Shown: positions 18,421-52,438, counted from the stretch's first letter. The stretch: DNA of 53,331 nt from an uncultured Chthoniobacteraceae bacterium (GCA_964651005.1 CAZYVL010000002.1:1275-54605), one strand, 5' to 3'. The notes: generated by a model from the sequence alone, not told the origin. Program-made: numbers and translations.

Positions 18421-18563
18421 CGAGGATAGGGGGGTGTCGCGATCGGCGACGCTTGTGTTGTGCTTTCCGGCGCGGTTTCCGGTGGAAACCGGCGCGGGTG
18501 CCTGCAAACCGGGCGTGGCATCGCCCCTGCTCTCTCCCGGCGGCAACGGGAGGAGGAAAGGCG

Positions 18564-19058: not shown

Positions 19059-19072
19059 CCGCGCTCTTGCGT

Positions 19073-19621: not shown

Positions 19622-19701
19622 AAGCCCGAGCGTAGCGCGGAGGGCGGGCGCGCGCGAGGGCTTTGCAACCGGGGCCGCTCCGAACGAAGGTGCAGGACGG
19701 T

Positions 19702-21755: not shown

Positions 21756-21825
21756 GCCGAGCCATAACGGGAAAACCGGCGGCTTGCCAAATGAAAAGCC
21801 CGGGCGAGAGTGTTGCCCGTTTCCC

Positions 21826-22635: not shown

Positions 22636-22701
22636 GCGCGAGGGGGGCGCAAGAGGCGGGGCTTGCATTCGCCCCGCTCCCGAATCAAAAAGGAGCCGCT
22701 C

Positions 22702-23811
22702 ATGAAAGTCATCGACCGTTACGTCAGCAGGCAGATCCTGCTTGCTTCGTTTTTCGCCGTGGCGGTGCTGAGCGTCGTGCTCGTTTTGGGCAATGTTTTC
22801 AAGCAGTTGCTCGATCTGCTCGTTAACCACAACGTACCGCTGGAGTACATCCTCGGCTTCATCGGCTACATTCTCCCGTTTTCGCTCACGTTTACCATTC
22901 CGTGGGGCTTTCTGATCGCCGTGCTGCTCGTGTTTGGCAAGCTTTCGGCGGAAAACGAGTTGATCGCCTTCCGCTCCGTCGGGATCGGGATGCCCCGGCT
23001 TTGCGCCGCAGTGGGAGTGATCGCCGTGGCGTTCTGTGCCATCTGCCTCTGGATCAACCTCCGCGTGGCCCCCGCCGCCCAGGAGAAGATGAAGGCGACG
23101 ATTTTCCACATCGCCACGAGCAACCCGCTGGCGATGTTCGGGAGCGACCAGGTGATCGACGAATTTCCCGGCAAGAAGATCTACGTGGAGCGCAAGGAGG
23201 GAACCTCGCTCTTCAACATTTTGGTTTACTACCTCGGCGAACACGGCGAGCCGCTCACCGTCCTCCATGCGCACCGGGGCGAACTCCAGACCGATCTGGT
23301 GCACAAACAGGTGCTCATGCGGCTCATGGACGCGCGCTACGAGCAGCGCGACCGGGCATTCCCGAAGGATATTACCAGGATCCGCGAGGGGATCAGAATG
23401 AAGGAGGGGGTCTTCCCGATTTCGCTCCAGGAGCTTTATGAAAAAAACAAGCGCCGCCGGAGCGTCGGCCAGCGGACGCTGGAGGAGCTCCTCAAGGTGG
23501 ACACCGCGACGAGTACCGAGCAGGAGCGGACCGCCGCGCTGACGGAAGTGAACAAGCGTTTCTCCTTTTCGCTCGCCTCGATTGCGTTCGCGCTCGTCGG
23601 CGTGCCGCTGGCGATCACCGCGCACCGCAAGGAGACCTCCATCGGCATCCTGCTCTCGCTGATCGTGGCGTTCGTCTACTTTTTCTTCATCATCCTGGCG
23701 ACCACCGTGCGCGATAACCCGAAGTTCCACCCCGAGTGGCTCATCTGGTCGCCCAACGTGATTTTCATCGGGCTGGGAATCTGGCTCTTCTTGCGGCTCG
23801 CGCGCCGGTAG
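22702..23811 (+). CDS. LptF/LptG (YjgP/YjgQ) family permease
   Basis: MKVIDRYVSRQILLASFF... with 6 TM segments and a large periplasmic loop. AAAGGAG lies upstream of the ATG at 22702. Confidence 0.85.
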   Translation: MKVIDRYVSRQILLASFFAVAVLSVVLVLGNVFKQLLDLLVNHNVPLEYILGFIGYILPFSLTFTIPWGFLIAVLLVFGKLSAENELIAFRSVGIGMPRLCAAVGVIAVAFCAICLWINLRVAPAAQEKMKATIFHIATSNPLAMFGSDQVIDEFPGKKIYVERKEGTSLFNILVYYLGEHGEPLTVLHAHRGELQTDLVHKQVLMRLMDARYEQRDRAFPKDITRIREGIRMKEGVFPISLQELYEKNKRRRSVGQRTLEELLKVDTATSTEQERTAALTEVNKRFSFSLASIAFALVGVPLAITAHRKETSIGILLSLIVAFVYFFFIILATTVRDNPKFHPEWLIWSPNVIFIGLGIWLFLRLARR

Positions 23812-28813: not shown

Positions 28814-29860
28814 AACAGGCTCTTCGGGGAGCGTGCAGCGCGCTTTCATATATTCGAGCGCCCGCCGTGCCGGTTCCGCCGGGAACGGTTCGTCGCGCTC
28901 CAGGTACTCGTCGCAGAGGCGATGGAACTCCGCCTCCGTCGTGGCGCGGCGGATGGCGTGGAGGAACGCTTCGTCCTCGCCGATCCCCTGGCCGATGAAG
29001 TTCATGTACCGCTTCATCTTCGAGACGTTGGCCGCTTCGGGAAGACGCGGTACGCGGGTTTCCGCGAAAAGCACGTCGATGTAGCCACGCAGATCGCGCA
29101 GTGTCGGCTGGAACACGGGCCGCCCCTCGGCCTCGTCGCGCAGTTGCCCGAAGAGCCACGGGTTGCGGATCGCCCCGCGCCCGATCATCAGCCCCGCCGC
29201 GCCGGTGGCCGCCACGGTTTCGCGCGCCAGCGCGACGGAGAGGACATTGCCGTTGGCGAAGACCGGCGCGTCGAGCCGCTCCACGGCCTGGCGGATGCGG
29301 TCGAGGTGCACACGCGTGCGGTACATCTCCCGGACGGTGCGCCCGTGCACGGTGAAGGCATCGACGCGGTGCCGGGCGAAGAGGTCGAGCAGACGGTCGA
29401 ACTCGCACGGGTCGTCGTAGCCGATCCGGGTCTTGACCGTGAAGGCGACGCCAACGGCGTCACGGAGCGCGGCGAGGATGGCGTCGATCTGCTCCGGGTG
29501 CTTGAGCAGGCCGCCGCCCGCGTTTTTCTTGCAGACGATCGGGGCGGGGCAGCCGAGGTTCAGGTCGATGCCGATGACGTTGTGCCGCTGGAGCGCCTCC
29601 GCCGTGCGGACGAGGGAGGGGATGTCCTCGCCGATCATCTGCGCGATCACGGGCCGCCCCGTCGGGTTGCTGTCGATGTCGGCGAGGAGATGCCGCTCCG
29701 GCTTCGAGTCGCGGTGAACACGGAAGTATTCCGTGAAGTAGACATCCGGGCCGCCGTAGCGGTGCATCACCCGCCAGAAAGGGAGATCGGTCACATCCTG
29801 CATCGGCGCGAGCAGAAGCAGCGGGCGGTGGCCGGGGATCAGGGCGCGGAGGGAAGGCAT
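28808..29860 (-). CDS. tRNA-dihydrouridine synthase
   Basis: From the ATG at 29860: LLLAPMQDVTDLPFW...IDLNLGCPAPIVCKKNAGGGLL...VKTRIG...HGRT...GRGAIRNPW. Confidence 0.9.
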   Translation of the reverse strand: MPSLRALIPGHRPLLLLAPMQDVTDLPFWRVMHRYGGPDVYFTEYFRVHRDSKPERHLLADIDSNPTGRPVIAQMIGEDIPSLVRTAEALQRHNVIGIDLNLGCPAPIVCKKNAGGGLLKHPEQIDAILAALRDAVGVAFTVKTRIGYDDPCEFDRLLDLFARHRVDAFTVHGRTVREMYRTRVHLDRIRQAVERLDAPVFANGNVLSVALARETVAATGAAGLMIGRGAIRNPWLFGQLRDEAEGRPVFQPTLRDLRGYIDVLFAETRVPRLPEAANVSKMKRYMNFIGQGIGEDEAFLHAIRRATTEAEFHRLCDEYLERDEPFPAEPARRALEYMKARCTLPEEPVL

Positions 29861-29995
29861 GAGGGCATGGAGGAACCTGGCCCAGCCTCCGGGGGGAGCG
29901 CGCCTTTGGCAAGCGTTCTTGCCATGCTTTCCGTTGCGGGCGGGGGCGATCCCGTGCGTTGCATTTGCCGTCAACGGGGCGTATAAACACCCTTC

Positions 29996-33991: not shown

Positions 33992-34046
33992 GTCCTGATT
34001 TCAGGGGAGCAGCCGCCATGCCACCCTGAGTAAGCGGCTCGGCTTG

Positions 34047-34088
34047 CCTTGGGCCTTGGGCCGTGGGCCGTGGGCCGTGGGCCGTGGG
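34047..34088. repeat. Heptamer tandem repeat (CCTTGGG)x2 (CCGTGGG)x4
   Basis: Read directly. There are six GGG tracts with 4-nt spacers on the plus strand. It lies 27 nt beyond the stop of the minus-strand gene 34116-34922 and 196 nt after the guaB stop. Confidence 0.95.
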
Positions 34089-34115
34089 CCCGCATCCGCG
34101 CCGCCGCCCGCGTCG

Positions 34116-34922
34116 TTACGCCGACGGGGAGGAGGCTTCGGTGCCGTGCTCCGCCTGCTCTGCCTTGATGGCGTCGCGCAGTTCGGCGGCGCGTTCGTAC
34201 GCTTCCGCTGCGATGGCGCGGTCCATCTCCTGCTGGAGCTTTTCGAGCCGGGAGAGCGGGCGCTGGGCGCGCAGCTCTTCAAGCCATTGCTCCAGAAACT
34301 GGATCTCCGCGCTGTTCTGGACCGCCTCGGGGCGCTCCTGGAGTGTTTCGAGAATCTTGTCGCGGCCCCGCTCGATCTGCCGCAGGGCGGCCCCGTAGTC
34401 GTTGCGCTCCAGCTCGATGGACGCCTTGGCGCGGGTGTTCATCATCAGGAGGTAGGGGCGGAACTGCTCGACCTGCCAAGAAAGCTCCTCGCGCTCGGCG
34501 TACCGGGCGATGAAGTTGAGCAGCTCCAGGTTCCGGTGAGTATCGCGGACGACCCCGGAGTAGTCCTCAAGCTGGAAGAGCGAGATGTAGCGGTGATAAT
34601 ACTGGATACCCTCATGCTGAAGCTCGGCGCATTCGTCGGAGCTGAGGGTGAAGGCGTTCCCCTTCCCCTGCGCCTCGGCGGCGCGCTCCTGGTGCCACTC
34701 CAGCAGCGATTCGCACCCATGCGGGCGCTGGCCGTCGGGCCTGCCGCTGAGCTCCATCTGGATAAGGCCGAGGTCGATCCGGAGCTGGAGCTTTTCCTTT
34801 CCGTCGTTGCCCGCCACCCGGCGAACGCGGATCTGCCCCGGCTCGTGCGGCCAGCCGTCGAGGAGGTTGTTCAGGTCCAGATTCATCTCCTGAATTATCG
34901 GGGGCGCAAAGTCGCTTTGCAA
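34116..34922 (-). CDS. Conserved hypothetical protein with a C-terminal UVR (UvrB/UvrC-type) motif
   Basis: The C-terminus IAAEAYERAAELRDAI is the UVR motif. The N-terminal region is LLDGWPHEPGQIRVRRV. The TTG start at 34922 lies 9 nt after the AKR stop. An alternative ATG is at 34886. Confidence 0.65.
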   Translation of the reverse strand: MQSDFAPPIIQEMNLDLNNLLDGWPHEPGQIRVRRVAGNDGKEKLQLRIDLGLIQMELSGRPDGQRPHGCESLLEWHQERAAEAQGKGNAFTLSSDECAELQHEGIQYYHRYISLFQLEDYSGVVRDTHRNLELLNFIARYAEREELSWQVEQFRPYLLMMNTRAKASIELERNDYGAALRQIERGRDKILETLQERPEAVQNSAEIQFLEQWLEELRAQRPLSRLEKLQQEMDRAIAAEAYERAAELRDAIKAEQAEHGTEASSPSA

Positions 34923-34931
34923 GCGCCCTGT

Positions 34932-35969
34932 TCACACGGAGGCGGCCTCGGTCTGCTCCATCGTCCCCTTGAAACGGGAGGGCGGTTCCTCCACGCCGAA
35001 GTTCATCGCGCCGAGCGTGGCGATCCGCTCCCGCTCGTCGGCTTCCAGCGGCGGGCAGTCGGGCGCGGCGGCGAATTCCACGAGCTGTTTTTCGTCATAG
35101 ATATTTGGCAGCGTGGAGGCGACACGCGAGTCCGCCAAGACCCACTGGAGCGCGGCCTGGCCTAGCGTCCGCCCGTCGCGTTCCAGAAAGCGGAGCGTCT
35201 CGACCTTCCGGCAGCCGTGGAGAAGCCAGCTCCGGGGGCGGTGGCGGCGGTGGTCGTTGGGCGGGAAAACGGTTTCCGGCGTGTAGTGCCCCTCCAGCAG
35301 CCCGCTGGAGTGCGGCACGCGGATCAGCCCCATCGTCCTCTTGCCCGCGTCGGCGGCGACTTGCTGGAGCGTGCGGCCGGGGTGCGGTTCCAGAATGTTG
35401 TAGATATGCTGGAGACTCGTGAACTCCCGCTCGCGCAAAGCGCGCACCCCTTCCCAAAGCCAGCCGATGGCCGGGCCGAGCGCCACCCCGGCGTACCGGA
35501 TTTTTCCGGCCGCGCGGAGCGCATCGAGCGTCTCCCAGAGCGCGTCGTCCTCCACCTGTTCCATCCGGATGTTGTGGAGCTGCATCAGGTCCACGCGGTC
35601 GGTTTTCAGCCGCCGGAGCGCGGCATCGGTCGCGCGGGTCAGCGCGGCGGGGGAAAAATCGTGTGGGATTTCGCTCTGGCCGCGCCGTCTGGATTCGCCG
35701 AAACGGACGAAATCGTAGCCGATCTTCGTGGCGATCACCACGTCGTCGCGGCGGTCGGGAAACGCCTTGGCCAGAAGTTCCTCGCTCCGCCCGTTGCCGT
35801 AGGTGTCGGCGGCGTCGAAGAGGGTGATGCCGAGGTCGAACGCCTTGTGCAGAAGCGCGATCGCCTCGGCGTCCGTGTACGCGCCCCACCAGCCTGTCGC
35901 CACGGTCCAAAGGCCAAAGCCGACTTCGCTCACCGTGAGGTTTGTATTTAAATAAGTGCGATACTTCAT
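34932..35969 (-). CDS. Aldo/keto reductase
   Basis: From the ATG at 35969: [21 protein letters not shown]...[16 protein letters not shown]...VDLMQLHN... Confidence 0.9.
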
Positions 35970-37303: not shown

Positions 37304-39454
37304 GTGGCTGATTCCGTTTCCAATCCGAACTCTCCGAACCGCGCCTATCCGCTGGAGCGCACCCGTAACATCGGGATTGCCGCGCACATCGACGCCGGTA
37401 AGACGACCACCACCGAGCGCATTCTCTTCTACACCGGCATGATCCACAAGATCGGCGAGGTGCACGAAGGGACTGCCACGACGGACTGGATGGAGCAGGA
37501 GCGCGAGCGCGGGATCACGATTACTTCCGCCGCCACGACCTGTTTCTGGAGCCAGCGCAAGGAAGAGGGCGTTTTCAAGCTTTACGAGGGGGTCAAGCAG
37601 CGCGTCAACATCATCGACACCCCGGGTCACGTCGATTTTACCGCCGAGGTGGAGCGTTCGCTCCGCGTGCTCGACGGCGCGGTTGCCGTGTTCTGTGGCG
37701 TCGCGGGCGTGCAGCCGCAGTCGGAGACGGTCTGGCGACAGGCGACCAAGTACAACGTACCGCGCATCGCGTTCGTCAACAAGATGGACCGCACCGGCGC
37801 GAACTTCGAGAACGCCGTCAACGACATGCGGACGAAGCTCGGTGCGAATGCCTGGCCGGTTCTGATGCCGCTTGGCCGGGAGGACCATCTTCACGGGCAG
37901 ATCGACATCATCAACAAGAAGGCGTTCGTCTACACCGACAGCGACGTTCTTGGCTCCACCTACACGATCGAGGAGATTCCTGCCGAGCTCAAAGAAAGCG
38001 TGGACGAGGCGTATGAAGGTCTTGTGAGCGCCGTGGCGGATCTCGACGATGAACTCGGGATGCTCTTCCTGGAAGAGAAGCCGATCACCGTTTCCGACCT
38101 CAAGGCGGCGATCCGCCGCCAGACCATCGCGAACCGCTTTGTGCCGGTCGTCGGGGGTTCCGCTTTCAAAAACAAAGGCGTTCAGGCGCTCGTGGACGCG
38201 GTGGTGGATTACCTCCCGAGCCCGCTCGATATTCCGCCCGCCCGTGGCCAGAACCCGGACGACGGCGAGCCGATGGACGCGCCCTCCGATGACAACGGGA
38301 ACTTCTGCTCGCTTGCCTTCAAGCTCTGGAGCGATCCGTTCGTTGGAAAACTCGTTTTCTTCCGCGTTTACTCCGGCAAGCTCGCCAAGGGCGACACGGT
38401 TTACAACCCGCGCACCAACAAGCGCGAGCGCATCAGTCGCCTCATCCAGATTCAGGCCGACAAGCGCGAGGATATTGACGTCTGCTACTCCGGCGACATC
38501 GCCGCCATCGTCGGCATCAAGAACATCACCACCGGCGACACGCTTTGCGACGAGGATCACCCGATCCTTCTCGAACCGCCTTCGTTCCCTGATCCGGTCA
38601 TTTCGATGGCCATTGAGCCGAAGACCAAGGTTGACCAGGAGAAGATGGGCAACGCGCTCCAGCGCCTGGCCGAAGAAGACCCGACTTTCCGCGTCACCTC
38701 CAACGAGGAAACTGGCCAGACATTGATTGCGGGGATGGGCGAGTTGCACCTCGAGATCATCCGCGACCGACTCCTGCGCGAGTTCAAGGTCGATGCCAAT
38801 TCCGGCAAACCGCAGATCGCCTACCGCGAAACGATCACCGCCACCGCCACCGGCGAGGGCAAGCTCGTCAAGCAGTCGGGCGGGCGCGGCCAGTACGGGC
38901 ACGTCATCGTCAATGTCGCCCCGAACGAGCGCGGCAAGGGGATCACCATCGAGAACAAGACGGTCGGTGGGTCGATTCCGAAAGACTTCATCCCTGCCGT
39001 CAAGAAGGGTCTTGAGGAAGCGGTTCTCAACGGCGTTGTCGGCGGCTATCCGGTCATCGACGTGAACATCGACATTGTGGACGGTTCGTTCCACGAGGTC
39101 GATTCGAACGAAATGGCATTCAAAATGGCGGCGATCTTCGCGGCCAAGGACGGCTTCAAGAAAGCGAAGTCGATTCTGCTGGAGCCGATCATGAAGGTGG
39201 AGAACGTCACCCCGGAAGAGTACCAGGGCGATATTCTCGGCGATCTCAACCGCCGTCGCGGGCGCATCCAGAGCATGGAATCGAAGGGAAACCTCTCCGC
39301 CGTCCACGCCGAAGTGCCGCTGGCCGAGATGTTCGGCTACTCGACCGCTATTCGCTCTCTCTCCAAGGGGCGTTCCTCGTACTCCATGGAGCCTTCCCAC
39401 TTCGAACAGGTGCCCGCCAGCGTGCTGGCAGCGGTACTCGACCAAAAGGGTTGA
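37304..39454 (+). CDS. fusA: Elongation factor G
   Basis: GTG start. [21 protein letters not shown]...[12 protein letters not shown]...NKMDR. 716 aa. Confidence 0.97.
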
Positions 39455-39500
39455 TGACAAGACCCGGTAATTCGACCCAAGCATCCAGAAGCCCATTTTT

Positions 39501-39812
39501 ATGACCAACGGCCAACGCATTCGCATCCGGCTCAAAGCCTTCGACTACCGGACGCTCGACCAGTCCTCGCTGGACATCGTGGAGACCGCCAAGCGCACCG
39601 GCGCCAAGGTGGCAGGGCCGATCCCGCTCCCGACCCGAATCGAGAAATTTACGGTAAACCGCTCTCCGCACGTCGATAAAAAGTCGATGGACCAGTTCGA
39701 AATCCGCACGCACAAACGCCTGCTGGACATCATCGAACCGACCGCGAAGACGGTGGACGAACTCAAGAAGCTGAACCTCCCGGCTGGTGTGGATATCACC
39801 ATCAAGATCTGA
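39501..39812 (+). CDS. rpsJ: 30S ribosomal protein S10
   Basis: [16 protein letters not shown]...GPIPLPT...[20 protein letters not shown]. Confidence 0.97.
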
Positions 39813-39838
39813 CCGGTGTTCACGACCCAACTGACGCA

Positions 39839-40489
39839 ATGAGATACGGACTTTTAGGAAAAAAAATCGGGATGACCCGGATTTACGACGAGAAGGGGCG
39901 CTCAACCCCCGTCACCGTCGTCGCCGTGGGGGGCAACACGCTTCTCCAGGTCAAGACGCTTGAAAAGGATGGCTACTCCGCCATTCAAGTCGGCTTCGAC
40001 ACCCAGAAAGAATCCCGCGTGACCAAGCCGGAACTGGGCCACTTCAAGAAGGCCAACTCCGAGACCAAGAAGCGTGTGGGCGAGTTTCGCCTCGCGGATG
40101 GCGACAAGGTGGAGGGCGAACTGAACCTCACCGCGTCTCACTTTCAGGTCGGCCAGATCGTTGACGTCATTGGGCGTTCCAAAGGGCGCGGTTTCCAGGG
40201 CATCGTTCGCAAGCACGGTGCCGCCGGGCAGCCTGCCTCGCACGGGTCGATGATGCATCGCCGTCCGGGCGCCATCGGCAACCGTTCCACACCGGGCCGG
40301 ATCTGGAAAAACCAGTCGATGCCCGGTCACATGGGCGACGACCGGATTACCGTCCAGAATCTTTCCATCGTTCAGGTTCGCGAGGCCGAGCAGCTCCTGC
40401 TCATCAAGGGCGCGATCCCCGGGGCAAACGGCGGCTACGTCGTCGTCCGCCCCGCCAAAAAGAAGCCCCTTCCCGTGGAGGCCAAGTAA
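39839..40489 (+). CDS. rplC: 50S ribosomal protein L3
   Basis: [16 protein letters not shown]...VTVV...[13 protein letters not shown]. Confidence 0.97.
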
Positions 40490-40501
40490 AAGGTTCCAGA
40501 C

Positions 40502-41110
40502 ATGAGTGCTACCGTTCTTACCATTGATGCGGCCAAGCAGGCGAATCTCGCCTTGATTGAAAACGGCCGTGGCACGCAGGCAGTCCACGACGTGGTTGTC
40601 GCTTTGCGCGCCAACCGCCGTAGCGGCACCGCCAACACCAAAACAAAGGCCGAGGTCAATCTCTCTGGTGCCAAGCCGTGGCGCCAGAAGGGGACGGGCC
40701 GCGCCCGCGCGGGCTACAAAAGCTCTCCGGTTTGGGTGGGGGGCGGCGTGGTCTTCGGGCCGAAGCCGCGCGACTACTCCAAGAAAGTAACCAAGTCGGT
40801 TCGCCGCCTCGCGTTGCGCAAAGCGTTGAGCGCTCGCATCCTCGCGGGAGACGTGCTGACGGTCGAGAATTTTGCGATCGCCACGCCGAAGACGAAGGAA
40901 TTTGTCGCTTGGGTAAAGGAGAATATCGGCGTGGAAAAGGCGCTCATCGTCGCCACCGCGTTTGACGAAAACACCTTCCGGGCCGCCCGCAACGTCCAGC
41001 CGACGCGTCTCATCTCGGCCTCCGAGGTGAACACCGAGCATCTCCTCGCCTTCAAGAAGATCGTCATCACCCGGGACGCCCTGGCGAAGTTGGCAGAAAG
41101 GATCCAGTAA
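40502..41110 (+). CDS. rplD: 50S ribosomal protein L4
   Basis: ...[17 protein letters not shown]...[18 protein letters not shown]... Confidence 0.96.
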
Positions 41111-41394
41111 TGAACGAGCCGTACGAATTGATTCAAACGCCTGTCCTGACGGAAAAGGCCACTCTGCTGAGCGAAAAACAAGGGAAATACGTCTTCCGCG
41201 TCTCCCCGCGCGCGAACAAGCTGGAGATCAAGCAGGCGATCGAGAGACTTTTCGGCAAGAAGGTGGCGGCTGTGAATACCGCCAATTTCGCCGGAAAAAA
41301 ACGCCGCCAGCGCCGCCCCGACGCCGGGCGCACCGCGCATTGGAAGAAGGCGATTGTCACCCTCAAGGCCGGGGAGAAGATTGATCTGGCCTAG
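41110..41394 (+). CDS. rplW: 50S ribosomal protein L23
   Basis: ...PVLTEKATLLSEKQGKYVFRVSPRANKLEIKQAIERLFG.KV..VNT... Confidence 0.96.
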   Translation: MNEPYELIQTPVLTEKATLLSEKQGKYVFRVSPRANKLEIKQAIERLFGKKVAAVNTANFAGKKRRQRRPDAGRTAHWKKAIVTLKAGEKIDLA

Positions 41395-41442
41395 GCCAAT
41401 AATTCAAGAGGCCACTGACGCCACCAACAGCATTTCACGAAC

Positions 41443-42285
41443 ATGGCACTGAAAACTTTCCGTCCTCTGACCCCGACGCAGCGCTTCAAGGCGCTCCCGG
41501 CGTTCGACGAGATTACGAAAAAGAAGCCCGAGAAAAGCCTTCTCGCACCGAAGCGCAGGACCGGCGGCCGCAACAACCGGGGCCGGTTGACCTCGCGCCA
41601 CATCGGCGGCGGGCACAAGCAGAAGTACCGGCTGATCGACTTTAAACGCCGCAAGCACGGAGTCGTCGCGGAAGTGGTCGGGATCGAGTACGATCCGAAC
41701 CGTTCTGCACGCATCGCGCTGCTCCGCTACGCGGACGGCGAGAAGAGCTACATTCTCGCGCCGGTGGGTCTCACCGTGGGCCGGAAGGTTTCTTCCGGCG
41801 AAGAGGCTGCTCCGGAAGTCGGCAACGCGCTCCCGCTCAAAAACATCCCGCTCGGCTCTTCGATTCACAACATCGAGTTGATCCCGGGGCGTGGCGGCCA
41901 GATCGCACGCAGCGCCGGGCAACAGGCGGTCCTGAGCAACCGTGAGGGTGGCTATGCCCTTGTCAAGATGCCTTCGGGCGAGATTCGCAAGATTCACGAG
42001 TCGGCCTATGCGACGCTCGGCCAGGTGGGCAACGTCGATCACATGAACGTCTCTTCCGGCAAAGCGGGCCGTTCCCGCTGGTTGGGCCGTCGGCCCCATG
42101 TCCGTGGCATGGTGATGAACCCGGTCGATCACCCGATGGGTGGCGGCCAGGGTAAATCGAAGGGCGGCGGCGGACGCCACCACCCGATGAGCCCGTGGGG
42201 CCAGTTGGCCAAGGGCTTTAAGACCCGCCGCAAGCACAAGGAGAGCAACAACTTCATCGTGCAGCGCCGCAACGCCAAGAAGTAG
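41443..42285 (+). CDS. rplB: 50S ribosomal protein L2
   Basis: [14 protein letters not shown]...GRNNRGR.TSRH.GGGHK..YR.IDF...[14 protein letters not shown]. Confidence 0.97.
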
Positions 42286-42327
42286 AGCCAAGAAGTAGAG
42301 AAGCAACGCCTGACTGACTGACAGATT

Positions 42328-42606
42328 ATGGGAAGATCACTGAAAAAAGGGCCTTTCGTCGCGCTCCATCTGCTCGAAAAAATCGACAAGATGAACGAGG
42401 GCGGGGTGAAAAAGCCGATCAAGACCTGGTCGCGCCGGTCGATGATTACGCCGGACTTTGTCGGGCATACGTTCCTGGTGCACAACGGCAAGATTTTCAA
42501 CTCGGTATTCGTGACCGAAAATATGGTCGGTCACAAACTTGGGGAGTTTTCCCCGACGCGTGTGTTCAAGAAGCACGGAGCACACACGGCCAAGGTGACG
42601 AAGTAG
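42328..42606 (+). CDS. rpsS: 30S ribosomal protein S19
   Basis: [11 protein letters not shown]...[25 protein letters not shown]...GHKLGEF.PTR. Confidence 0.97.
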
Positions 42607-42608
42607 CG

Positions 42609-43460
42609 ATGTGGCGTCCTGCTTTACGGGCAGGAGCGGCGAAAGCCGTACACGCGACGCCCGCCTGCGGGGTGTTGCGAGCGTTCACGGCGCTGCTGGT
42701 GCTTCTGGCGCCGACAAGTGGGTCGGCGGCCAGTGGGGGGAGTTCTTTCTCAGATCTAGACATCGAATTTACGGAGGCGAAATTGACGCTTCAGACAGTG
42801 ACTGCCGAGAACCAGCTTCTCCGGCAGCAACTCGATGAAGCGCGGAGCGCCGTGAAATCACTGACCGAAAGCCTCGCCGTTGCCAACGGGGAAGCCGAGG
42901 TCTTCCGGAAGGAGGCGGCGGAGCAGAAGCTGCGGATGGAGGCGCTTGGAGTCGATGGACTCAGCGGCGACAGAAGCAAGCTCGAGCAACGTCTCCTGAA
43001 AGGAGTGCGCGATCTTCAACTGCTGCAAAGCGAGAAGGATCAGCTCGCAGACGAGCTGCTTCAGCTTAGCGAAGCGGTGTTGCGGTTCGCCAAGGGGGCA
43101 ACCACCGACGATGCCGAAGCGCGTCTTGCCTTGGAGGCGAGGTTGCGCAGCGCGGCTGGTGCGCTGGGGGTCCCCGGGAGTGAAACCGCTGGAGAGAAGG
43201 AAAACCAGCCCGGCGCGGATTTGACGCGGGGGATGGTCATCAGCATCAAGGAGGAGTGGTCGCTGGTGGTGGGTAACCTCGGGAGCCAACAAGGCGTCCG
43301 GGTGGGGATGCCCTTCCGGGTAATCCGGGACGGAAACGAGATCGGAGTGATCCGGGCCGTGGACGTGCGGGAAAAAATTTTCGGCGGAGTGATACAAAGT
43401 CTGGACTCTGGGAAGAACAAAATTAAAGTCGGCGACCGCCTTAAGGTGGACACCAGGTAA
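42609..43460 (+). CDS. Non-ribosomal hypothetical protein: signal peptide, ~150-aa coiled coil and a ~75-aa C-terminal beta-rich domain, embedded in the S10 operon
   Basis: The ATG lies 2 nt after the rpsS stop, and the stop lies 12 nt before the rplV ATG. An alternative GTG at 42672 gives MLRAFTALLVLLAPTSGSAAS. Heptad-rich segments include ENQLLRQQLDEARSAVKSLTESL and LQLLQSEKDQLADELLQL. The C-terminus is GMVISIKEEWSLVVGNLGSQQGVRVGMPFRVIRDGNEIGVIRAVDV...KIKVGDRLKV. No competing ORF looks credible. Confidence 0.7.
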   Translation: MWRPALRAGAAKAVHATPACGVLRAFTALLVLLAPTSGSAASGGSSFSDLDIEFTEAKLTLQTVTAENQLLRQQLDEARSAVKSLTESLAVANGEAEVFRKEAAEQKLRMEALGVDGLSGDRSKLEQRLLKGVRDLQLLQSEKDQLADELLQLSEAVLRFAKGATTDDAEARLALEARLRSAAGALGVPGSETAGEKENQPGADLTRGMVISIKEEWSLVVGNLGSQQGVRVGMPFRVIRDGNEIGVIRAVDVREKIFGGVIQSLDSGKNKIKVGDRLKVDTR

Positions 43461-43472
43461 TTTTTAACCAAC

Positions 43473-43901
43473 ATGCAGATTCATTCGACATACAAGTATG
43501 CGCGCATTTCGGCCTTCAAGGCCCGGGAGGTGACGCGCGAAATTCAGGGCCTGCCGGTCGCGGCGGCGCTGGACATCGTTGCGTTCAGCCCGAAGAGGGC
43601 TGCCGTGCTCGTGGCCAAGACGCTTAAGAGCGCGGTCGCCAACGCCGAAAACAACGCCAATCTGCGCGTGGATACACTGGTTGTCCAGGAAGCCACCGTC
43701 GGCGAAGGCCCGACCCTGAAGCGGTCGCAGCCGAAAGCGCGGGGGAGCGCCGGCCCCATTCTCAAGCGGTCCTCGCATATTCGGATCATCCTTTCCGACG
43801 AGATCGCCATCAAACCCCCCAAAGCGAAAGCGAAACCCCGCAACCGGACGACCGGGAAGGCCCGGAGCCGAAAGAGCGCACCAAGTCAGGAGAGCAAGTA
43901 A
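43473..43901 (+). CDS. rplV: 50S ribosomal protein L22 (with a Lys/Arg-rich C-terminal extension)
   Basis: ...[38 protein letters not shown]... Confidence 0.95.
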
Positions 43902-43905
43902 TTTT

Positions 43906-44604
43906 ATGGGTCAGAAAGTCAATCCAATCGGTTACCGCCTCGCCCTCAACCGGGACTGGCGCTCGCGGTGGTACGCGTCGCCCAAGGACTTCCCGGAGTT
44001 TCTTCATGCGGATCTGAAAATCCGCGGCTACGTCAAGAAGAAGCTCGCGCTGGCCGCCGTCTCCAAGATCGTCATTGAGCGTGCTTGGAACAGCCTTCGC
44101 GTGACGATCTACACCGCCCGGCCCGGCATTGTCATTGGCCGCAAGGGGACGGAGATCGAAAAGATGACCGAGGAGATCGCTTCGATGTCCGGGGGCAAGC
44201 AGGTCAAGATCGACATTCAGGAGATCAAGACGCCGGAACTCGACGCGCAGCTCGTCGCGGAGAACATCTCTCTCCAGATCGAGCGCCGCATTTCGTTCCG
44301 CCGCGCGATGAAGAAGGCGGTTCAGACGACGATGGATTTCGGAGCGCAGGGGGTCAAGGTCCGCTGCGCCGGGCGTCTTGGCGGGGCGGAAATCTCCCGC
44401 GCCGAGCGTTACCACGAAGGGAAAGTGCCGCTGCACACGCTGCGCACCCCGATCGACTACGGCTTCGCCGAGGCGGAGACGGTTTATGGAAAGATCGGCG
44501 TCAAGGTCTGGCTCTGCAAACCCGAGCCGGGAACCGAAGTGGCGCCGCCCGCCCGCGAACCGAGGGAGCCGCGCGAAGGACGCGACCGCAACCGCCATTC
44601 CTGA
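43906..44604 (+). CDS. rpsC: 30S ribosomal protein S3
   Basis: [12 protein letters not shown]...W.SRWYA...I.RPG.VIGRKG.EIE...[10 protein letters not shown]...[12 protein letters not shown]. Confidence 0.97.
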
Positions 44605-44663
44605 CGCCCGCCAAGGAGGCCGACCGACACCCAAGCCCGAGAATTTTTTAGAGGAGATTCACT

Positions 44664-45086
44664 ATGCCACTGATGCCAAAACGCGTGAAGTACCGGAAGA
44701 CCCAGCGGGGTAGCCGCAAGGGAACCGCTTCGCGCAACGTGACCATCGACTTCGGCGCTTACGCGCTACAGACTTTGGAGCGCGCCTGGATCACCAACAC
44801 CCAGATCGAGGCCGCCCGCGTCGCCTTGACCCGCAACATGAAGCGCAAAGGGAAGCTTTGGATTCGGATTTTTCCGGATAAATCCGTGACCTCCCGCCCG
44901 CCGGAAACCCGAATGGGAAAAGGCAAGGGCGCGCCGGAATACTGGGTTGCCGTGGTTCGGCCCGGAAACATCCTTTTTGAACTCGACGGCATTTCGGAGT
45001 CGGTCGCGCGGGAGTCCCTGCGCCTCGCTGCAACGAAACTGCCGATCCGCACCCGTTTCCTCAGCCGCCACCGCGCGGCGGCGTAA
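44664..45086 (+). CDS. rplP: 50S ribosomal protein L16
   Basis: [14 protein letters not shown]...[38 protein letters not shown]. Confidence 0.97.
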
Positions 45087-45134
45087 GGCGGCCCAAGCTC
45101 CGACTTCGCGACCACCAAGCCGCACCACCAAGGT

Positions 45135-45356
45135 ATGAAGATTAAAGAAATCAGAGAAGCAACCAGCGAAGAGCTGGCGGGCCGCAAGCGCGAGCTGCGG
45201 GAAGCCGCCTTCCGCCTCCGCATTCAGGGAAAGATCGGCCAGCTCGAAAAGCCGAGCGAGATCCGCGCCACTCGGCGCGAGGTCGCCCGAATCGAAACGG
45301 TGCTTTCCGAACGCCGCGCCCAGCAGGCCGCGGCCGCATCCCAAGCGAAACCATGA
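45135..45356 (+). CDS. rpmC: 50S ribosomal protein L29
   Basis: [31 protein letters not shown]...R.ARIETVL. Confidence 0.93.
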
Positions 45357-45640
45357 GCGAGAATCAAACGATCGAAAACCAAGAGGCCCAAAGCGTTCGC
45401 AACCTTCGCAAGACGAGGGTGGGACAGGTGGTTTCCAACAAGGCCAACAAGACCGCTGTCGTCGAGACGGTGACCCGCGTGCCGCATCCCCGCTTTGGCA
45501 AGATTGTCAAGCAGGTGAAAAAGTACCACGCGCACGACGAGGAGAACCAGGCGCAGGTCGGGGATACCGTCCGCATCATGGAGACCCGCCCCCTCAGCAA
45601 ATTGAAACGCTGGAGGATTGTTGAAATCCTCAAACATTAG
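45353..45640 (+). CDS. rpsQ: 30S ribosomal protein S17
   Basis: ...[43 protein letters not shown]....GD.V.I.ETRPLSK.KRW. Confidence 0.95.
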
Positions 45641-45667
45641 TGTAAGCTCACACCCCTTTTTCGCAAT

Positions 45668-46033
45668 ATGCTCCAGATTCGATCCAGACTCGACGTTGCC
45701 GACAACACGGGCGCCCGGATGGCCAAGATGATCGGCGTCATCGGCAAGCCGACCAAAGAAGCGCGCGTCGGCGACATTATCACCGCCCACATTCGCGAGG
45801 CTTCGCCCGGCGGGAGCGTGAAAAAGGGCGATGTGGTTCGCGCCGTTGTGGTGCGGACCAAGCACCCGATCCGTCGCGAAGACGGCTCCTATCTCCGGTT
45901 TGACAAGAACGCCATCGTCATCATCGACAAGGATTCGAACCCGCGCGGAACCCGTATTTTCGGGCCGGTGGCCCGCGAGTTGCGCGAGCGCAACTTCATG
46001 AAAATCGTTTCGCTTGCCCCGGAGGTGCTGTAA
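45668..46033 (+). CDS. rplN: 50S ribosomal protein L14
   Basis: [17 protein letters not shown]......G......A.VGD.I......A.PGG.VKKGDVV.AVVVRT....RR.DGSY.RFD.NA.V.I. Confidence 0.97.
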
Positions 46034-46037
46034 GCTC

Positions 46038-46322
46038 ATGAGCCAGAAATTTCACGTCAAGAAAGGGGACCACGTTGAAGTGATCTCCGGCAATCACAAG
46101 GGAACTACGGGGAAGATTCTCCAGCTGCTCCCGAAGAAAAGCCAGGTGTTGATCGAGGGCGTTCACCTCATCAAGAAACACACCCGCAAGTCCCAGGAGA
46201 ACCCCCAGGGGGCGATCATCGAACGCGAGGGGCCGGTGCACGTTTCCAACGTGAAGGTGGTCGAGAAGGCCGCCAAGTCCACGGGGAAATCCGCCGGGAA
46301 AAAGGGGAACAAGGCCGCCTAG
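46038..46322 (+). CDS. rplX: 50S ribosomal protein L24
   Basis: From the ATG at 46038: [28 protein letters not shown] (KOW motif). The track's 46014 start overlaps the end of rplN. Confidence 0.95.
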
Positions 46323-46366
46323 GCGGCATCACGCCAGCATTCGCAGCAATCGTGTAGCAATCGTTT

Positions 46367-46927
46367 ATGCCAGTCGCACTTTACAAAGAATATAAGGAAC
46401 GGGTGGTTCCCGCGCTCAAGGCCCAGCTTGGCTGCGCGAACATCCATGAAGTTCCGCGCGTCGAAAAGATCGTGGTGAACACAAGCGTTGGCTCGTCCTC
46501 GGATGTCAAGCAGGCGCTTGAGGACGCCAAGAACGAGCTCGCGCTCATCACCGGGCAGCGGCCCGCCGAAACTCGCGCCAAGAAGAGCATCTCCAACTTC
46601 AAGCTCCGCGAGGCGCAGCCAATCGGCGCGAAGGTCACTCTGCGTGGACCGAAGATGTACGAGTTCCTGGAGCGGTTCATCAAGATGGCGCTCCCTCGCA
46701 TTCGCGACTTTCGCGGCATCTCCCCCCGGGCCTTCGACGGGCGGGGGAACTACACGATCGGCGTCGCCGACCAGAGCATTTTCCCGGAAGTTGAGCTCGA
46801 CAAGATCAAGCGCAACATCGGGTTTGACGTGACGATTGTCACCTCCGCCCGCAAAGATGAGCATGCCAAGGCACTGCTGACCGAACTGGGAGTCCCCTTT
46901 ACCGACAAGGCGCGGAGGGCCGCCTGA
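46367..46927 (+). CDS. rplE: 50S ribosomal protein L5
   Basis: ...P.V.KIVVN.....S.D.K.LE.A...L..ITGQ.P....AKKSI.NFKLRE...IG.KVTLRG..MYEFL.R... Confidence 0.97.
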   Translation: MPVALYKEYKERVVPALKAQLGCANIHEVPRVEKIVVNTSVGSSSDVKQALEDAKNELALITGQRPAETRAKKSISNFKLREAQPIGAKVTLRGPKMYEFLERFIKMALPRIRDFRGISPRAFDGRGNYTIGVADQSIFPEVELDKIKRNIGFDVTIVTSARKDEHAKALLTELGVPFTDKARRAA

Positions 46928-46971
46928 CCGGCCTCCGCAGGGAGTTCCGGGTATTCTTTAAACAGTAGATT

Positions 46972-47370
46972 ATGAGCAATTTGTCCGATCCTATCGCAGA
47001 TTTCCTGACGCGGCTGCGCAACGCAGCTGGCGCTCAGAAGGCGGAAACCGTTGTTCCCTATTCGAAGATCAAGATCGAGATCGCCCGCATCCTCAAGGAG
47101 GAAGGGTATATCTCGAACTATGAACTCGACACCACGGGCGCGTTTCCTCAAATTCGTATCGCCAACAAGTTCGTGAACCGCACGCCTGCGATCACCGGAC
47201 TCAAGCGCGTGAGCCGCCCCGGGCTTCGCCGTTATGTCGGCTCGCGGGAAATCCCCCGCGTGCTGGGTGGCCTCGGGGTCTCCATCCTCTCCACGCCTCG
47301 CGGGATCGTCACGGGCCGTGAAGCAAAGAAACAGAATGTCGGCGGCGAGCTGCTCGCCTACGTCTGGTAA
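46972..47370 (+). CDS. rpsH: 30S ribosomal protein S8
   Basis: SDPIADFLTRLRNA......V.P.SK.K..IA.ILKEEGYI......SRPGLR.Y.....IP.V..GLG..ILST..G... Confidence 0.97.
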   Translation: MSNLSDPIADFLTRLRNAAGAQKAETVVPYSKIKIEIARILKEEGYISNYELDTTGAFPQIRIANKFVNRTPAITGLKRVSRPGLRRYVGSREIPRVLGGLGVSILSTPRGIVTGREAKKQNVGGELLAYVW

Positions 47371-49453: not shown

Positions 49454-50956
49454 ATGATTTCCGCCTTTTCCAACACGTTCAAAGTCCCGGAACTCCGGAA
49501 TCGTGTCCTTTTCACCCTCCTGCTGATTATCGTCATCCGCATCGGGGCGTTTATCGCGGTCCCGGGCGTGGATGCATCGGTGCTCAAGGAGTGGTTCGCC
49601 ACGGAAGTCAACCAGCAGCAGGGCGGGAGCGTCGTCGCGCTCTTTAACCTCTTTAGCGGTGGCGCGCTCGAAAATTGCGCGATCTTCTCGCTCGGGGTGA
49701 TGCCCTACATCAGCGCCTCGATCATGCTGCAACTGCTCACCGCCGTGGTGCCGCAGTTGAGCAAGCTCTCCAAGGAGGACGGTGGGCGGCAGAAGATCAT
49801 GCAGTACACCCGGTACGCAACGATCGGGCTGTGCATCTTTCAGGGCTACCTGCTCGCGCTCACCTTTCAGAACCCGGCGTCGAATCCGATGCTGCCGGGG
49901 ATTGCCGAAACGATCAACCGCCTGGGGCGCAGCCTCGTTGTGGATCCCGGGCCGTTCTTCCTTGTCAGCGCCGTCATTACCATGACGGCCGGAACGATGT
50001 TTTTGATGTGGGTTGGCGACCAGATGACCGACCGAGGGGTTGGCAACGGGATGTCGATGATTATCACCATCGGGATTGTCGCGCAGCTTCCCGGCGGGTT
50101 GGTTCAAGCGTGGCAGTTTTTCGTCCCGAGCGGCGGCGGCAACCAGGTCAACCCGATGGTCTTGGTGATCCTGATTGCCTTTTTGATCCTTGTCGTGGCC
50201 GCCGTAATCGCCGTCACGGAAGGGCAGCGCAAGGTCAGCGTCCAATACGCAAAACGGATCGTGGGCAGGAAGGTGTACGGCGGCCAGACCCAGTACATGC
50301 CGCTCAAGGTCAACTACGCGGGCGTCATGCCGATCATCTTCGCCCAGGCATTGCTGATGTTTCCCGCGCAGATCATCAACATGGCCTTCAAGAACAGCCC
50401 GATGGCGGCCAAGCTCGCGCGCGCCCTTTCCGACGGTTGGCTGCACTACAGCCTTTACGGCGTGATGATCTTCTTCTTCAGCTATTTCTGGGTGGCCACG
50501 CAGTTTCAGCCACAGCAGATCGCCGATGACCTCAAGAAATACGGCGGCTACATTCCGGGCGTGCGTCCTGGTAAACCGACCGCCGATTTCCTCGACTTCT
50601 CGATGAGCCGCCTGACCTTCGCCGGGGCGGTCTTCCTGACGATCATTGCGATTTTGCCGCAGATGCTCAGCCTTCAACTGCACGTTCCGCACATGACGGC
50701 GCAGTTTTTTGGGGGCACCGGGCTTTTGATTATCGTCGGCGTCATCCTCGACACCATGCGGCAGGTGGAAACCTACCTCATCCAACGGCACTACGACGGC
50801 TTCCTCCGGAAAGGAAGACTTCGGGGCCGCGCCGATCGGACGCCGATTGGCCGGGGCGAAGTCGTCCAACAAAACGCGATGGTCTGGGCCTATGTGGCGG
50901 CCGCGCTTCTCTTCATCGGCGGAATGGTGATCTACATCGCCCAGCAGTTGCACTAG
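49454..50956 (+). CDS. secY: Preprotein translocase subunit SecY, with a ~45-aa C-terminal extension containing an extra hydrophobic segment
   Basis: ...ELRNRVLFTLLLIIVIRIG..I.VPG......LF..SGGAL....IF.LG.MPYISASI..QLL...The usual end ..RHYDGFLRKGRLRGR is followed by ADRTPIGRGEVVQQNAMVWAYVAAALLFIGGMVIYIAQQLH. Confidence 0.95.
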   Translation: MISAFSNTFKVPELRNRVLFTLLLIIVIRIGAFIAVPGVDASVLKEWFATEVNQQQGGSVVALFNLFSGGALENCAIFSLGVMPYISASIMLQLLTAVVPQLSKLSKEDGGRQKIMQYTRYATIGLCIFQGYLLALTFQNPASNPMLPGIAETINRLGRSLVVDPGPFFLVSAVITMTAGTMFLMWVGDQMTDRGVGNGMSMIITIGIVAQLPGGLVQAWQFFVPSGGGNQVNPMVLVILIAFLILVVAAVIAVTEGQRKVSVQYAKRIVGRKVYGGQTQYMPLKVNYAGVMPIIFAQALLMFPAQIINMAFKNSPMAAKLARALSDGWLHYSLYGVMIFFFSYFWVATQFQPQQIADDLKKYGGYIPGVRPGKPTADFLDFSMSRLTFAGAVFLTIIAILPQMLSLQLHVPHMTAQFFGGTGLLIIVGVILDTMRQVETYLIQRHYDGFLRKGRLRGRADRTPIGRGEVVQQNAMVWAYVAAALLFIGGMVIYIAQQLH

Positions 50957-50999
50957 GCAGCAGGGCCGTGCACCGCACGCAATCACTTCCCCAGGGGAC

Positions 51000-51698
51000 T
51001 TGAAGGCGACCACTCCATCTTCAAACAGCGCAGGAGGCGAACGCCATGTTCGCAAAAGGCGGATCGTCCTTCTCGGACCGCCCGCTTCCGGCAAGGGAAC
51101 GCAAGCCGAGCGAATCCGGGAACGCTACGGGCTTGAGCCGACTTCTACCGGAGCCATGCTTCGCGAGCACTCGCAACGTGGCACCGAGTTGGGCAAAGCC
51201 GCCGACGCTCTCACCGCGCGCGGCCAACTGGTTCCCGATGCTTTGATTACCGCGCTCGTTGAAGAATGGCTGACCGGGCACGGCGACGGATTCGTCTTCG
51301 ACGGCTTTCCGAGGACAGTGCCGCAGGCGGAGGCGCTGGAGGCGCTTTTGGCCCGGCGGGGCACTCCGCTCCAGGCGGTTCTCTTTTTCAATGTCCCCTT
51401 TGAGGAAATCCGCAATCGCGTGCTCAACCGGGTGAACTGCCGCCAGTGTGGAAGGATTTTTAAGGTCGGCTTGCATGTCGCCTCCACGGAAGCGCCCTGC
51501 CCCGTGTGCGAAGGCCCCCTCTGCCGCCGCGCGGACGACACGCTCGAAGTGCTGGAGCGGCGCATGGCCGAGTACCGGGAAAAGACCGAGCCGCTGGTCG
51601 ATTTTTACCGAAAAAGAGGGCTGCTCTTCGAGCTTAAGGGCGGGCCAAGGCCGGAAACCGTTTTTGCGGAGATTTCATCCATTCTGGAGGCTGCATGA
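51000..51698 (+). CDS. adk: Adenylate kinase (start codon problematic)
   Basis: RIVLLGPPASGKGTQAERI......GFVFDGFPRT..QA..L... and the lid CRQCGRIF....CPVCEG.L..R.DD. The only in-frame start is the TTG at 51000, which gives a ~20-aa leader. AGGAGG (51032-51037) plus 8 nt plus the ATG at 51046 is 1 nt out of frame. Confidence 0.9.
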   Translation: MKATTPSSNSAGGERHVRKRRIVLLGPPASGKGTQAERIRERYGLEPTSTGAMLREHSQRGTELGKAADALTARGQLVPDALITALVEEWLTGHGDGFVFDGFPRTVPQAEALEALLARRGTPLQAVLFFNVPFEEIRNRVLNRVNCRQCGRIFKVGLHVASTEAPCPVCEGPLCRRADDTLEVLERRMAEYREKTEPLVDFYRKRGLLFELKGGPRPETVFAEISSILEAA

Positions 51699-52438
51699 TC
51701 CCGATCAAGACCGCCAAAGAGATTGAGAAAATGCGGATTGCCTGTCGGACAGCCGGAGCCATTCGCGACCGGCTCGCGGGCCTGGTCCGCCCGGGCATCA
51801 GCACCGGCGAGATCGATTCCGCCGCAGCCGATTTTATCGCGGAGGCCGGGTGCCGGAGCGCGTTCCTGAACTATCGCGGTTTTCCGGGCCAGATTTGCAT
51901 TTCCGTGAACGAGGAGGTCGTCCACGGGATCGGCGGCCCGCGGGCGATCCAATACGGCGACGTGGTGAAGATCGACATTGGCGTGATCCAGGACGGTTGG
52001 GTGGGGGACACCGCCACGACCGTTCCCGTCGGCGCGGTGGCGGAACCGGTGCAGCGGCTTTTGCAGGTGACGGAGGAATCGCTCCGCATCGCGATCACCC
52101 ATGCCGTGGATGGCAAAAGGCTCGGCGACCTGTGCGCTTCGGTAGAGGAGAAGGTGGTGGCGAGCGGGTTCACCGTGGTGCGCGAGTTTGTCGGGCACGG
52201 CGTCGGACGGCAGCTTCACGAGGAGCCGCAGATCCCGAACTACGGGCGGCGCGGCTCCGGCCCGAGGCTCAAGGCCGGGATGACGCTCGCCATCGAGCCG
52301 ATGGTCAACCTCGGCAAAAGCGGGGTGCGCATCCTTCCCGACGGCTGGACGGTCGTCACCACTGACGCAAAGCCCTCCGCCCATTTCGAACACACCGTCC
52401 TGGTGACGCGCGGCGAACCGGAGATCCTGACATGGTGA
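51695..52438 (+). CDS. map: Methionine aminopeptidase type I
   Basis: [12 protein letters not shown]........FPG..C.SVNE.V.HGI......GD.V.ID.G....G..GD...T..VG......GHG.G...HE.P......G....L..GM..AIEPM......T.D...SAHFEHT. Confidence 0.96.

Follow-up and report, generated by a model that had tools for sequence, protein, structure and literature searches.

Few gene orders in prokaryotes are as stable as that of the S10 operon, which normally consists of ribosomal protein genes alone. Here we describe a gene of 283 codons, referred to below as X, that lies in the middle of this operon, between rpsS (ribosomal protein S19) and rplV (ribosomal protein L22), in an uncultured Chthoniobacteraceae bacterium. 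The DNA analysed (GCA_964651005.1 CAZYVL010000002.1:1275-54605; hereafter the window) is 53,331 nt long, and all coordinates are counted from its first letter. X is a genuine protein-coding gene, and is best explained as an ancient, lineage-specific gene fixed between rpsS and rplV in the class Verrucomicrobiae. With slightly better than even confidence we take its product to be an exported, probably oligomeric periplasmic scaffold that is tied to the S10 operon and probably coupled to translation of rpsS.

Position, conservation and family of gene X

A first-pass annotation, made from the sequence alone, had described an 852-nt open reading frame (ORF) filling the junction between rpsS and rplV, with spacers of 2 nt and 12 nt. 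The ORF list and the raw sequence agree with this, placing X at 42609-43460 on the plus strand with an ATG start and a product of 283 amino acids, 2 nt after the rpsS stop codon and 12 nt before the rplV ATG, and Pfam matches establish the identity of both neighbours. The features of the locus, with the evidence for each, are as follows.

42328 to 42606, plus strand: rpsS (ribosomal protein S19), directly upstream of X (Pfam Ribosomal_S19, E 6e-37)
42604 to 42611, plus strand: rpsS stop codon (TAG), 2-nt spacer CG and ATG of X, a putative termination-reinitiation junction (sequence)
42609 to 43460, plus strand: gene X, 283 amino acids and stop codon, an uncharacterised conserved protein (homologs, substitution rates, synteny)
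43461 to 43472, plus strand: spacer of 12 nt from the end of X to the ATG of rplV (sequence)
43473 to 43901, plus strand: rplV (ribosomal protein L22), directly downstream of X (Pfam Ribosomal_L22, E 1e-35)

The order S19-X-L22 was found without exception at every testable locus of about 170. In a one-genome-per-species collection, 160 species had a relative of X, and all 84 of the loci examined for gene order read L2-S19-X-L22-S3 wherever the flanks were present. An independent metagenome scan yielded 385 relatives, of which 80 were kept for a locus check; S19 lay upstream of X in 74 of 74 testable cases and L22 downstream in 73 of 73. Divergent members from a representative library and from a second database search occupy the same slot, at loci whose ribosomal proteins are only ∼64-66% identical to the L2 of the window. 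The public sources all name the protein "hypothetical". This invariant order, together with the tight spacers and the purifying selection described below, bears out the earlier proposal that X is hard-wired into the S10 operon.

As an outgroup probe we used the L22 protein of a "Verrucomicrobiales" metagenome-assembled genome (MAG) to reach named taxa, where a direct S19-L22 junction was expected. Both named taxa inspected have an unannotated gene of 263-278 amino acids between S19 and L22, one at a locus whose L22 is labelled Akkermansiaceae bacterium by NCBI and the other in the cultured isolate Verrucomicrobiales bacterium BCK34. The Akkermansiaceae-labelled protein is a full-length homolog of X (hhalign probability 99.8%, E 6.6e-30, 254 columns); for BCK34 the multiple alignment is the sole basis for homology. 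Because these outgroup Verrucomicrobiales taxa carry full-length X as well, the idea that X is specific to Chthoniobacterales was dropped. Its range covers at least two orders of Verrucomicrobiae (Chthoniobacterales and Verrucomicrobiales) rather than one genome or family, and among the taxa inspected we found no Verrucomicrobia outgroup that is free of X.

A search of a 5.8-billion-protein database returned at least 1,851 homologs of X at E ≤ 1e-3, the best 120 of which are 51-77% identical to it. Nearly all are unnamed or called "hypothetical protein" and come from Verrucomicrobiota or Chthoniobacteraceae MAGs. When a profile of the C-terminal domain was run exhaustively against 1.84 billion representatives clustered at 50% identity, 338 clusters matched at E ≤ 1e-10, a number that rose to 1,808 when E was relaxed to ≤ 1e-3. 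The single protein and two profiles (A2 and A4) were searched against Pfam, NCBIfam and the sequences of the PDB. Apart from coiled-coil noise, the only matches were sub-threshold ones, to FlgT_C, TsaP, a MexC-like protein and an Sm protein; no sequence family in these three resources covers X, in keeping with the first-pass statement that the family was not recognised. X is not mentioned in the literature we found on signatures of the Planctomycetes-Verrucomicrobia-Chlamydiae (PVC) group or of Verrucomicrobia, in a literature search that was partial, so that an earlier description is possible. CT421.2, which Gupta et al. put forward as a PVC "signature protein", has 53-80 amino acids and is a different protein from X (PMC3444138).

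We estimated the ratio of nonsynonymous to synonymous substitution rates (dN/dS) by the pairwise Nei-Gojobori method on unsaturated pairs. The values for X (0.08-0.13) fall between those for rpsS (0.02-0.04) and rplV (0.13-0.20) at the same loci. Along the protein, constraint is strongest in residues 206-283 (the barrel described below) and 113-135 (the tip), and weakest in the signal region and the linker; the absolute regional values are inflated by near-saturated pairs, and only their relative pattern was used. The first-pass annotation had named the lack of a conserved homolog at this junction, or dN/dS near 1, as grounds for withdrawing its proposal; neither holds, since some 170 loci are conserved and dN/dS is about 0.1.

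These data dispose of the view that X might be spurious, or a mobile insertion of recent date. At 64% GC, the window is full of long spurious ORFs on both strands, and the codon use of X is atypical, which would suit such an origin. However, dN/dS is far below 1, the homologs form hundreds of sequence clusters, the C-terminal domain gives a confident structural model, the same slot is occupied in two orders and the GC content resembles that of the neighbouring genes. We consider this explanation refuted by dN/dS, cluster count and fixed synteny, and its probability negligible.

Transcription, probable coupling to rpsS and codon use

The first-pass annotation saw no room for a promoter or terminator around X, and a consensus scan of 39000-47000 indeed found neither a sigma-70-like promoter nor a terminator-like hairpin on the plus strand. 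An Rfam scan of the whole 53-kb window (1-53331) at the gathering threshold had no match, and so no known ribosomal protein leader or structured RNA was recognised upstream of the S10 and spc genes; ARAGORN found no tRNA genes. X lies on the same strand as its neighbours, with short spacers, fixed adjacency and no intervening promoter or terminator found. We infer that X is co-transcribed with the S10 operon, since a gene with no promoter or terminator of its own would be expected on the operon transcript.

The junctions were compared across 86 loci. The gap between the S19 stop and the X start has a median of 4 nt and is mostly 2-4 nt, while that between the X stop and the L22 start has a median of 23 nt and a range of 0 to 138 nt. 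In the Terrimicrobiaceae type, for example, the S19-X junction reads AAATAA-ACC-ATG. Even a weak 4-mer resembling a Shine-Dalgarno sequence was present in only 22 of the 53 loci in which the S19-X gap is 10 nt or less. Since the ATG of X is 2-4 nt past the rpsS stop and has no Shine-Dalgarno sequence in most relatives, ribosomes finishing S19 would be expected to reinitiate on X, and the pattern of the junction probably reflects termination-reinitiation coupling.

X was said to be richer in rare codons than the flanking ribosomal protein genes, and three measures bear this out. The listed rare codons make up 19 of the 283 codons of X and number 1-5 in each flanking gene. The codon adaptation index (CAI) against ribosomal protein genes is 0.54 for X, the lowest in the operon, versus 0.64-0.76. 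GC content at third codon positions is 0.71, also the lowest, versus 0.72-0.82 in ribosomal protein genes. The overall GC content of X (0.614) is similar to that of neighbouring genes, and for this reason we do not regard it as compositionally foreign. The poor codon adaptation suggests that the output of X is below that of the ribosomal proteins.

Several further observations concern the downstream neighbour and other parts of the locus. L22 is long in this lineage: that of the window (rplV 43473-43901) has 142 amino acids with a Lys/Arg/Pro-rich C-terminal tail, and that of many Verrucomicrobiales (P0403 among them) has ∼230-260 amino acids and combines Ribosomal_L22 with helix-hairpin-helix domains (PF14520, PF00633). 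In two relatives from the representative library (P0132 and P0177, both outside the window) the gene call runs in frame from the X barrel into L22 with no X stop codon; the barrel ends in GDRLKVDAR and GDTMHVDVQ, respectively, and is followed by a short linker and then L22 (with MQVRSTYRFARISAF in the former and MEVLSVYRGARMSAF in the latter). This continuity could be a real fusion, readthrough or an assembly error. In one long-read MAG (L002:167-879) the rplC position is taken by two ORFs of 170 and 72 amino acids with no Pfam match, and rpmC and rplN are absent from the gene calls; these are probably frameshift errors of that assembly and not biology. Elsewhere in the window, long ORFs of 354-702 amino acids at 18420-20267 (minus strand), 21625-23730 (minus strand), 28922-29983 (plus strand) and 34044-35162 (plus strand) have no Pfam match at E ≤ 1e-5. 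Some may be spurious, given DNA of 64% GC, and others may be further unannotated families.

Putative export signal and predicted architecture

We modelled full-length X with AlphaFold2 (AF2) from an alignment of 27 sequences, obtaining a mean predicted local distance difference test (pLDDT) score of 74.8 and a predicted template modelling score (pTM) of 0.32. In the model, residues 1-48 are disordered, residues 49-112, 122-163 and 169-186 form helices, residues 187-205 are a disordered linker and residues 208-280 form six strands at a pLDDT of ∼90. Taken with the other evidence given in brackets, the protein can be divided into five regions.

42609 to 42740, plus strand: residues 1-44, signal-peptide-like, with an n-region, the hydrophobic core AFTALLVLLAP and a putative cleavage site A-S-G/G (alignments, hydropathy)
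42753 to 42944, plus strand: residues 49-112, helix 1 in a stable heptad register, together with the conserved motif DLDIEFTEAK at the mature N-terminus (AF2 pLDDT up to 92, heptads)
42945 to 43013, plus strand: residues 113-135, helix break with the "tip" motif ALGVDGLSGDRSKLEQRLLKGVRD (best-conserved part of the helical region, lowest dN/dS outside the barrel)
43014 to 43166, plus strand: residues 136-186, helices 2 and 3, with a second heptad register (AF2, heptad analysis)
43167 to 43223, plus strand: residues 187-205, variable Gly/Pro/Glu-rich linker, predicted disordered (pLDDT < 50 at 191-202, indel-rich columns, relaxed constraint)

To these is added a sixth, the C-terminal domain.

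43224 to 43457, plus strand: residues 206-283, six-stranded beta-barrel of the FlgT_C / F1-ATPase-crown type (domain model, Foldseek, sub-threshold Pfam FlgT_C)

The first-pass annotation had proposed a signal peptide, clearest from an alternative GTG start at 42672. The signal-like N-terminus stands. In alignments the start codon of the relatives (M-L/R-R-P-A) coincides with the ATG at 42609, and the GTG falls within a lineage-specific in-frame insert of ∼60 nt, at about 42636-42700, that is partly common to the closest relative (L005) and lengthens the n-region to ∼25 amino acids. With either start the hydrophobic core followed by A-S-G/G is retained. Across the family the N-termini share the layout M-L-R-P, hydrophobic core and A-x-G/G/E-S-S-F-S-D-L-D (the first oblique marking the putative cleavage site), and a 10-residue hydrophobic window with a Kyte-Doolittle value of at least 1.6 (median 2.4) is present in 95 of 106. 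In the other 11 the gene call starts within the core itself. Truncation of this kind recurs in the databases, where several homologs are shortened in the same way, and the existing gene call for the contig of the window (P0001; 225 amino acids, 80% coverage) begins ∼58 codons past the ancestral ATG, losing the signal. Assessed heuristically, the N-terminus has the features of proteins secreted by Sec and processed by signal peptidase I, namely a positive n-region, a core of 8-15 residues and small residues at -3 and -1. These n-, h- and c-region features are kept while the sequence drifts, as expected of a signal peptide. Export of X by Sec, with cleavage after the conserved A-x-G, is most likely and would give a mature protein of ∼26 kDa with a pI of 5.15 and no Cys. 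We also considered a lipoprotein and rejected it, as there is no lipobox ([LVI][ASTVI][GAS]C) at the end of the signal; the only Cys of the window protein (C20, in TPAC) lies in the same ∼60-nt insert as the GTG and is not conserved.

About 150 residues of heptad-rich helix had been predicted after the signal, and the AF2 helices and a heptad periodicity in residues 49-186 well above that of 500 shuffled sequences (z = 4.8) agree. The periodicity resolves into two stable registers, with ∼140 residues of heptad helix in two segments. Residues A112, L113, G114, R128, L129, L130 and D135 around the tip are invariant in the alignment, and G114, L129 and R134 are invariant in both orders. Helix 1 (64 residues) equals helices 2 and 3 together (∼65 residues) in length, which makes a helical hairpin plausible, and the coiled coil is probably a hairpin and/or a dimer.

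The beta-rich C-terminal module was correctly recognised as a small barrel in the first-pass annotation, although its comparison with MreC or NfeD gives way to a different fold assignment. Modelled by itself the barrel has a pLDDT of 86 and a pTM of 0.76. Foldseek searches of the PDB with the full-length and domain models both returned Vibrio FlgT (8z5n, the LPHT ring, and 3w1e) as the top two matches, with E 2e-4 for the full-length model and template modelling (TM) scores of 0.68-0.71 for the barrel, indicating the same fold as the C-terminal barrel of FlgT. The next matches were the N-terminal crown barrel of F1/V1 ATPases and EscN, the ATPase of a type III secretion system (TM score 0.62-0.65, root-mean-square deviation 2.7-3.0 Å over ∼76 residues). 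These have the topology of the X barrel but are domains of cytoplasmic ATPases, whereas X lacks a nucleotide-binding domain and no sequence relationship to them was detected. Among sequence profiles, Pfam FlgT_C (PF16538) was the sole recurring domain signal, found in 19 of 20 members with a best E of 6.3e-6, in all cases below the 27-bit gathering cut-off; the window protein scored 11.3 bits at full length and 17.1 bits for the domain alone. PDB profile searches gave non-significant matches to the FlgT-like domain of TsaP (E 0.84-1.2), a MexC-like adaptor and an Sm-like protein (E 0.31). TsaP, a secretin-associated ring protein (3jc8), differs from X in having a LysM domain and no long coiled coil.

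Barrels of the X type also occur outside the S10 operon in two other architectures. P0240 (L087:1975-3120) is a transmembrane, coiled-coil protein with two barrels, encoded in the order lgt - rlu - P0240 - ? - murA-type - mreB - mreC, and P0246 (L088:3175-4383) is a lipoprotein with four tandem barrels. Their context ties this type of barrel to the envelope indirectly and independently of X.

Could X be the flagellar H-ring protein FlgT itself? It shares the six-stranded barrel, FlgT heads the structural matches, and the weak but recurrent FlgT_C signal centres on the motif GxxxGVxxGMPF. The match is, however, limited to the ∼75-residue C-terminal barrel, with scores under the cut-off; X lacks the N and M domains of FlgT, has a 140-residue coiled coil in their place and is encoded not in a flagellar cluster but in the S10 operon, with ribosomal protein genes as its neighbours at every locus. 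Cultured Chthoniobacter and Akkermansia are described as non-motile. Orthology to FlgT was therefore rejected as extremely improbable, the N and M domains and flagellar context being absent and the barrel alone matching.

A membrane-anchored morphogenetic protein resembling MreC, with an uncleaved signal anchor, a dimerising coiled coil and a barrel docking peptidoglycan synthases, deserves more consideration. In overall design, with a hydrophobic N-terminus followed by a coiled coil and a small barrel, X resembles MreC, and its Gly-rich loop motif (GxxxGVxxGMP) is MreC-like. Pfam MreC (PF04085) makes weak contact with 3 of 20 members (best E 0.013), one JGI record labels an X homolog MreC, and the related P0240 adjoins murA-mreB-mreC. 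Yet MreC is not among the Foldseek top 50 for the X models and the window protein has no Pfam MreC match at E ≤ 1. X has one barrel and not two, its short core (∼11 residues) followed by the conserved A-x-G is typical of a signal that is cleaved rather than a transmembrane anchor, and its locus has no mreB-mreC-mreD context, while the P0240 locus encodes a separate MreC. We regard this alternative as unlikely.

Proposed role and significance

In the reading we prefer, X would be a scaffold exported to the periplasm. Its barrel would form rings or dock partners, the part that barrels play in FlgT, TsaP, MreC and the ATPase crown, and its coiled coil would act as a spacer or arm, joined to the barrel by the flexible linker. 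FlgT, TsaP and MreC act in the periplasm as ring or scaffold proteins. The crown barrels of F1 pack side by side as a ring, and it is on this ground that we propose oligomerisation of X through its barrel. A similar design, with a signal peptide, a long coiled coil and a C-terminal globular domain, is seen in EnvC and CpoB (YbgF), which are exported to work in the periplasm as regulators or scaffolds. The likeness is no more than an analogy: their C-terminal domains (LytM and TPR) are unlike that of X and no sequence or structural match to X was found.

Production of X looks tied to ribosome synthesis because X sits between rpsS and rplV in every relative examined. The first-pass idea of a structural envelope factor coupled to growth rate is a proposal drawn from the fold, the domain layout and the place in the operon. 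Ribosomes ending S19 would reinitiate on X, and the supply of X would scale with ribosome production as that of secY does in the spc operon. Permanent non-ribosomal residents of ribosomal protein operons, whose expression thereby tracks the making of ribosomes, are classical (secY, adk, map and rpoA, and also infA), and secY serves protein export. In the window, candidate secY, adk and map ORFs, assigned by position and size alone, follow the spc genes at about 49454-52438. These genes are nearly universal and lie distally in spc or in the alpha operon, whereas X is lineage-specific and lies in the middle of the otherwise purely ribosomal S10 operon.

Several points weigh against the scaffold interpretation. 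The signal peptide was judged by hydropathy and motif heuristics only. The FlgT_C scores lie below the gathering cut-off, so that homology to FlgT is not established, and a barrel fold that cytoplasmic ATPases have as well is not enough to locate X in the periplasm. The full-length pTM fixes neither the arrangement of the helices (hairpin or extended) nor the oligomeric state, and no partner or envelope-related gene neighbours X at its locus.

X might instead be a cytoplasmic ribosome-associated or biogenesis factor, or a lineage-specific ribosomal protein, its N-terminus being no export signal. Its place in the S10 operon and probable translational coupling to S19 would fit, small barrels commonly bind RNA or ribosomes (compare the weak Sm-like match), and the same barrel fold is present in cytoplasmic ATPases. 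On the other hand mature X is acidic, unlike ribosomal proteins, the n-, h- and c-region features are kept family-wide despite sequence drift, the low CAI argues against ribosomal stoichiometry, and the best structural neighbours are periplasmic. The ribosomal protein form of this proposal was rejected on pI, signal-like N-terminus and CAI; as a whole we judge it decidedly unlikely.

As an exported nascent chain would be made directly upstream of rplV, the export status of X might also feed back on translation of L22. In its fullest form this becomes a conjecture that we rate as a long shot: X would be a core, possibly essential, envelope component throughout the class Verrucomicrobiae, relatives of Akkermansia included; stop-start coupling to rpsS would make its synthesis mechanically dependent on ribosome production, and its export status might in turn influence how L22 and the ribosomal proteins downstream are translated. 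If that were true, envelope or secretion capacity would be directly coupled to ribosome synthesis within the most conserved bacterial operon. A narrower proposal, which we find very improbable, makes X mainly a cis-acting monitor of Sec in the manner of SecM, MifM or VemP, whose export-dependent translation tunes rplV and the genes downstream. In most loci the ORF that ends 0-30 nt before rplV bears a signal-like N-terminus, some relatives read from X into L22, and arrest peptides sense the ribosome exit tunnel, of whose wall L22 forms part. Monitoring substrates tend, however, to be short, with conservation confined to the arrest site, whereas purifying selection acts over the whole length of X and is strongest in the confidently folded barrel; no arrest-type motif was recognised in X.

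The components of X (signal peptide, coiled coil and FlgT_C-type barrel) and the principle of a non-ribosomal gene in a ribosomal protein operon are already known. What is new is how the components are combined, and that the gene has become fixed mid-way along the S10 operon across a bacterial class. In at least two orders a gene for an apparently exported, non-ribosomal protein has stayed there, under selection about as strong as that on its ribosomal protein neighbours. X provides a clean genomic signature for the lineage and defines a large family of hundreds of sequence clusters that has no name in the databases. Cultured carriers include the isolate BCK34, in which the gene is seen, and presumably Chthoniobacter and Terrimicrobium isolates, and genetics are available for the related Akkermansia. 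We infer a scaffold role for X, and the gene makes it possible to test whether the dosage of an envelope or periplasmic factor is tied to ribosome synthesis.

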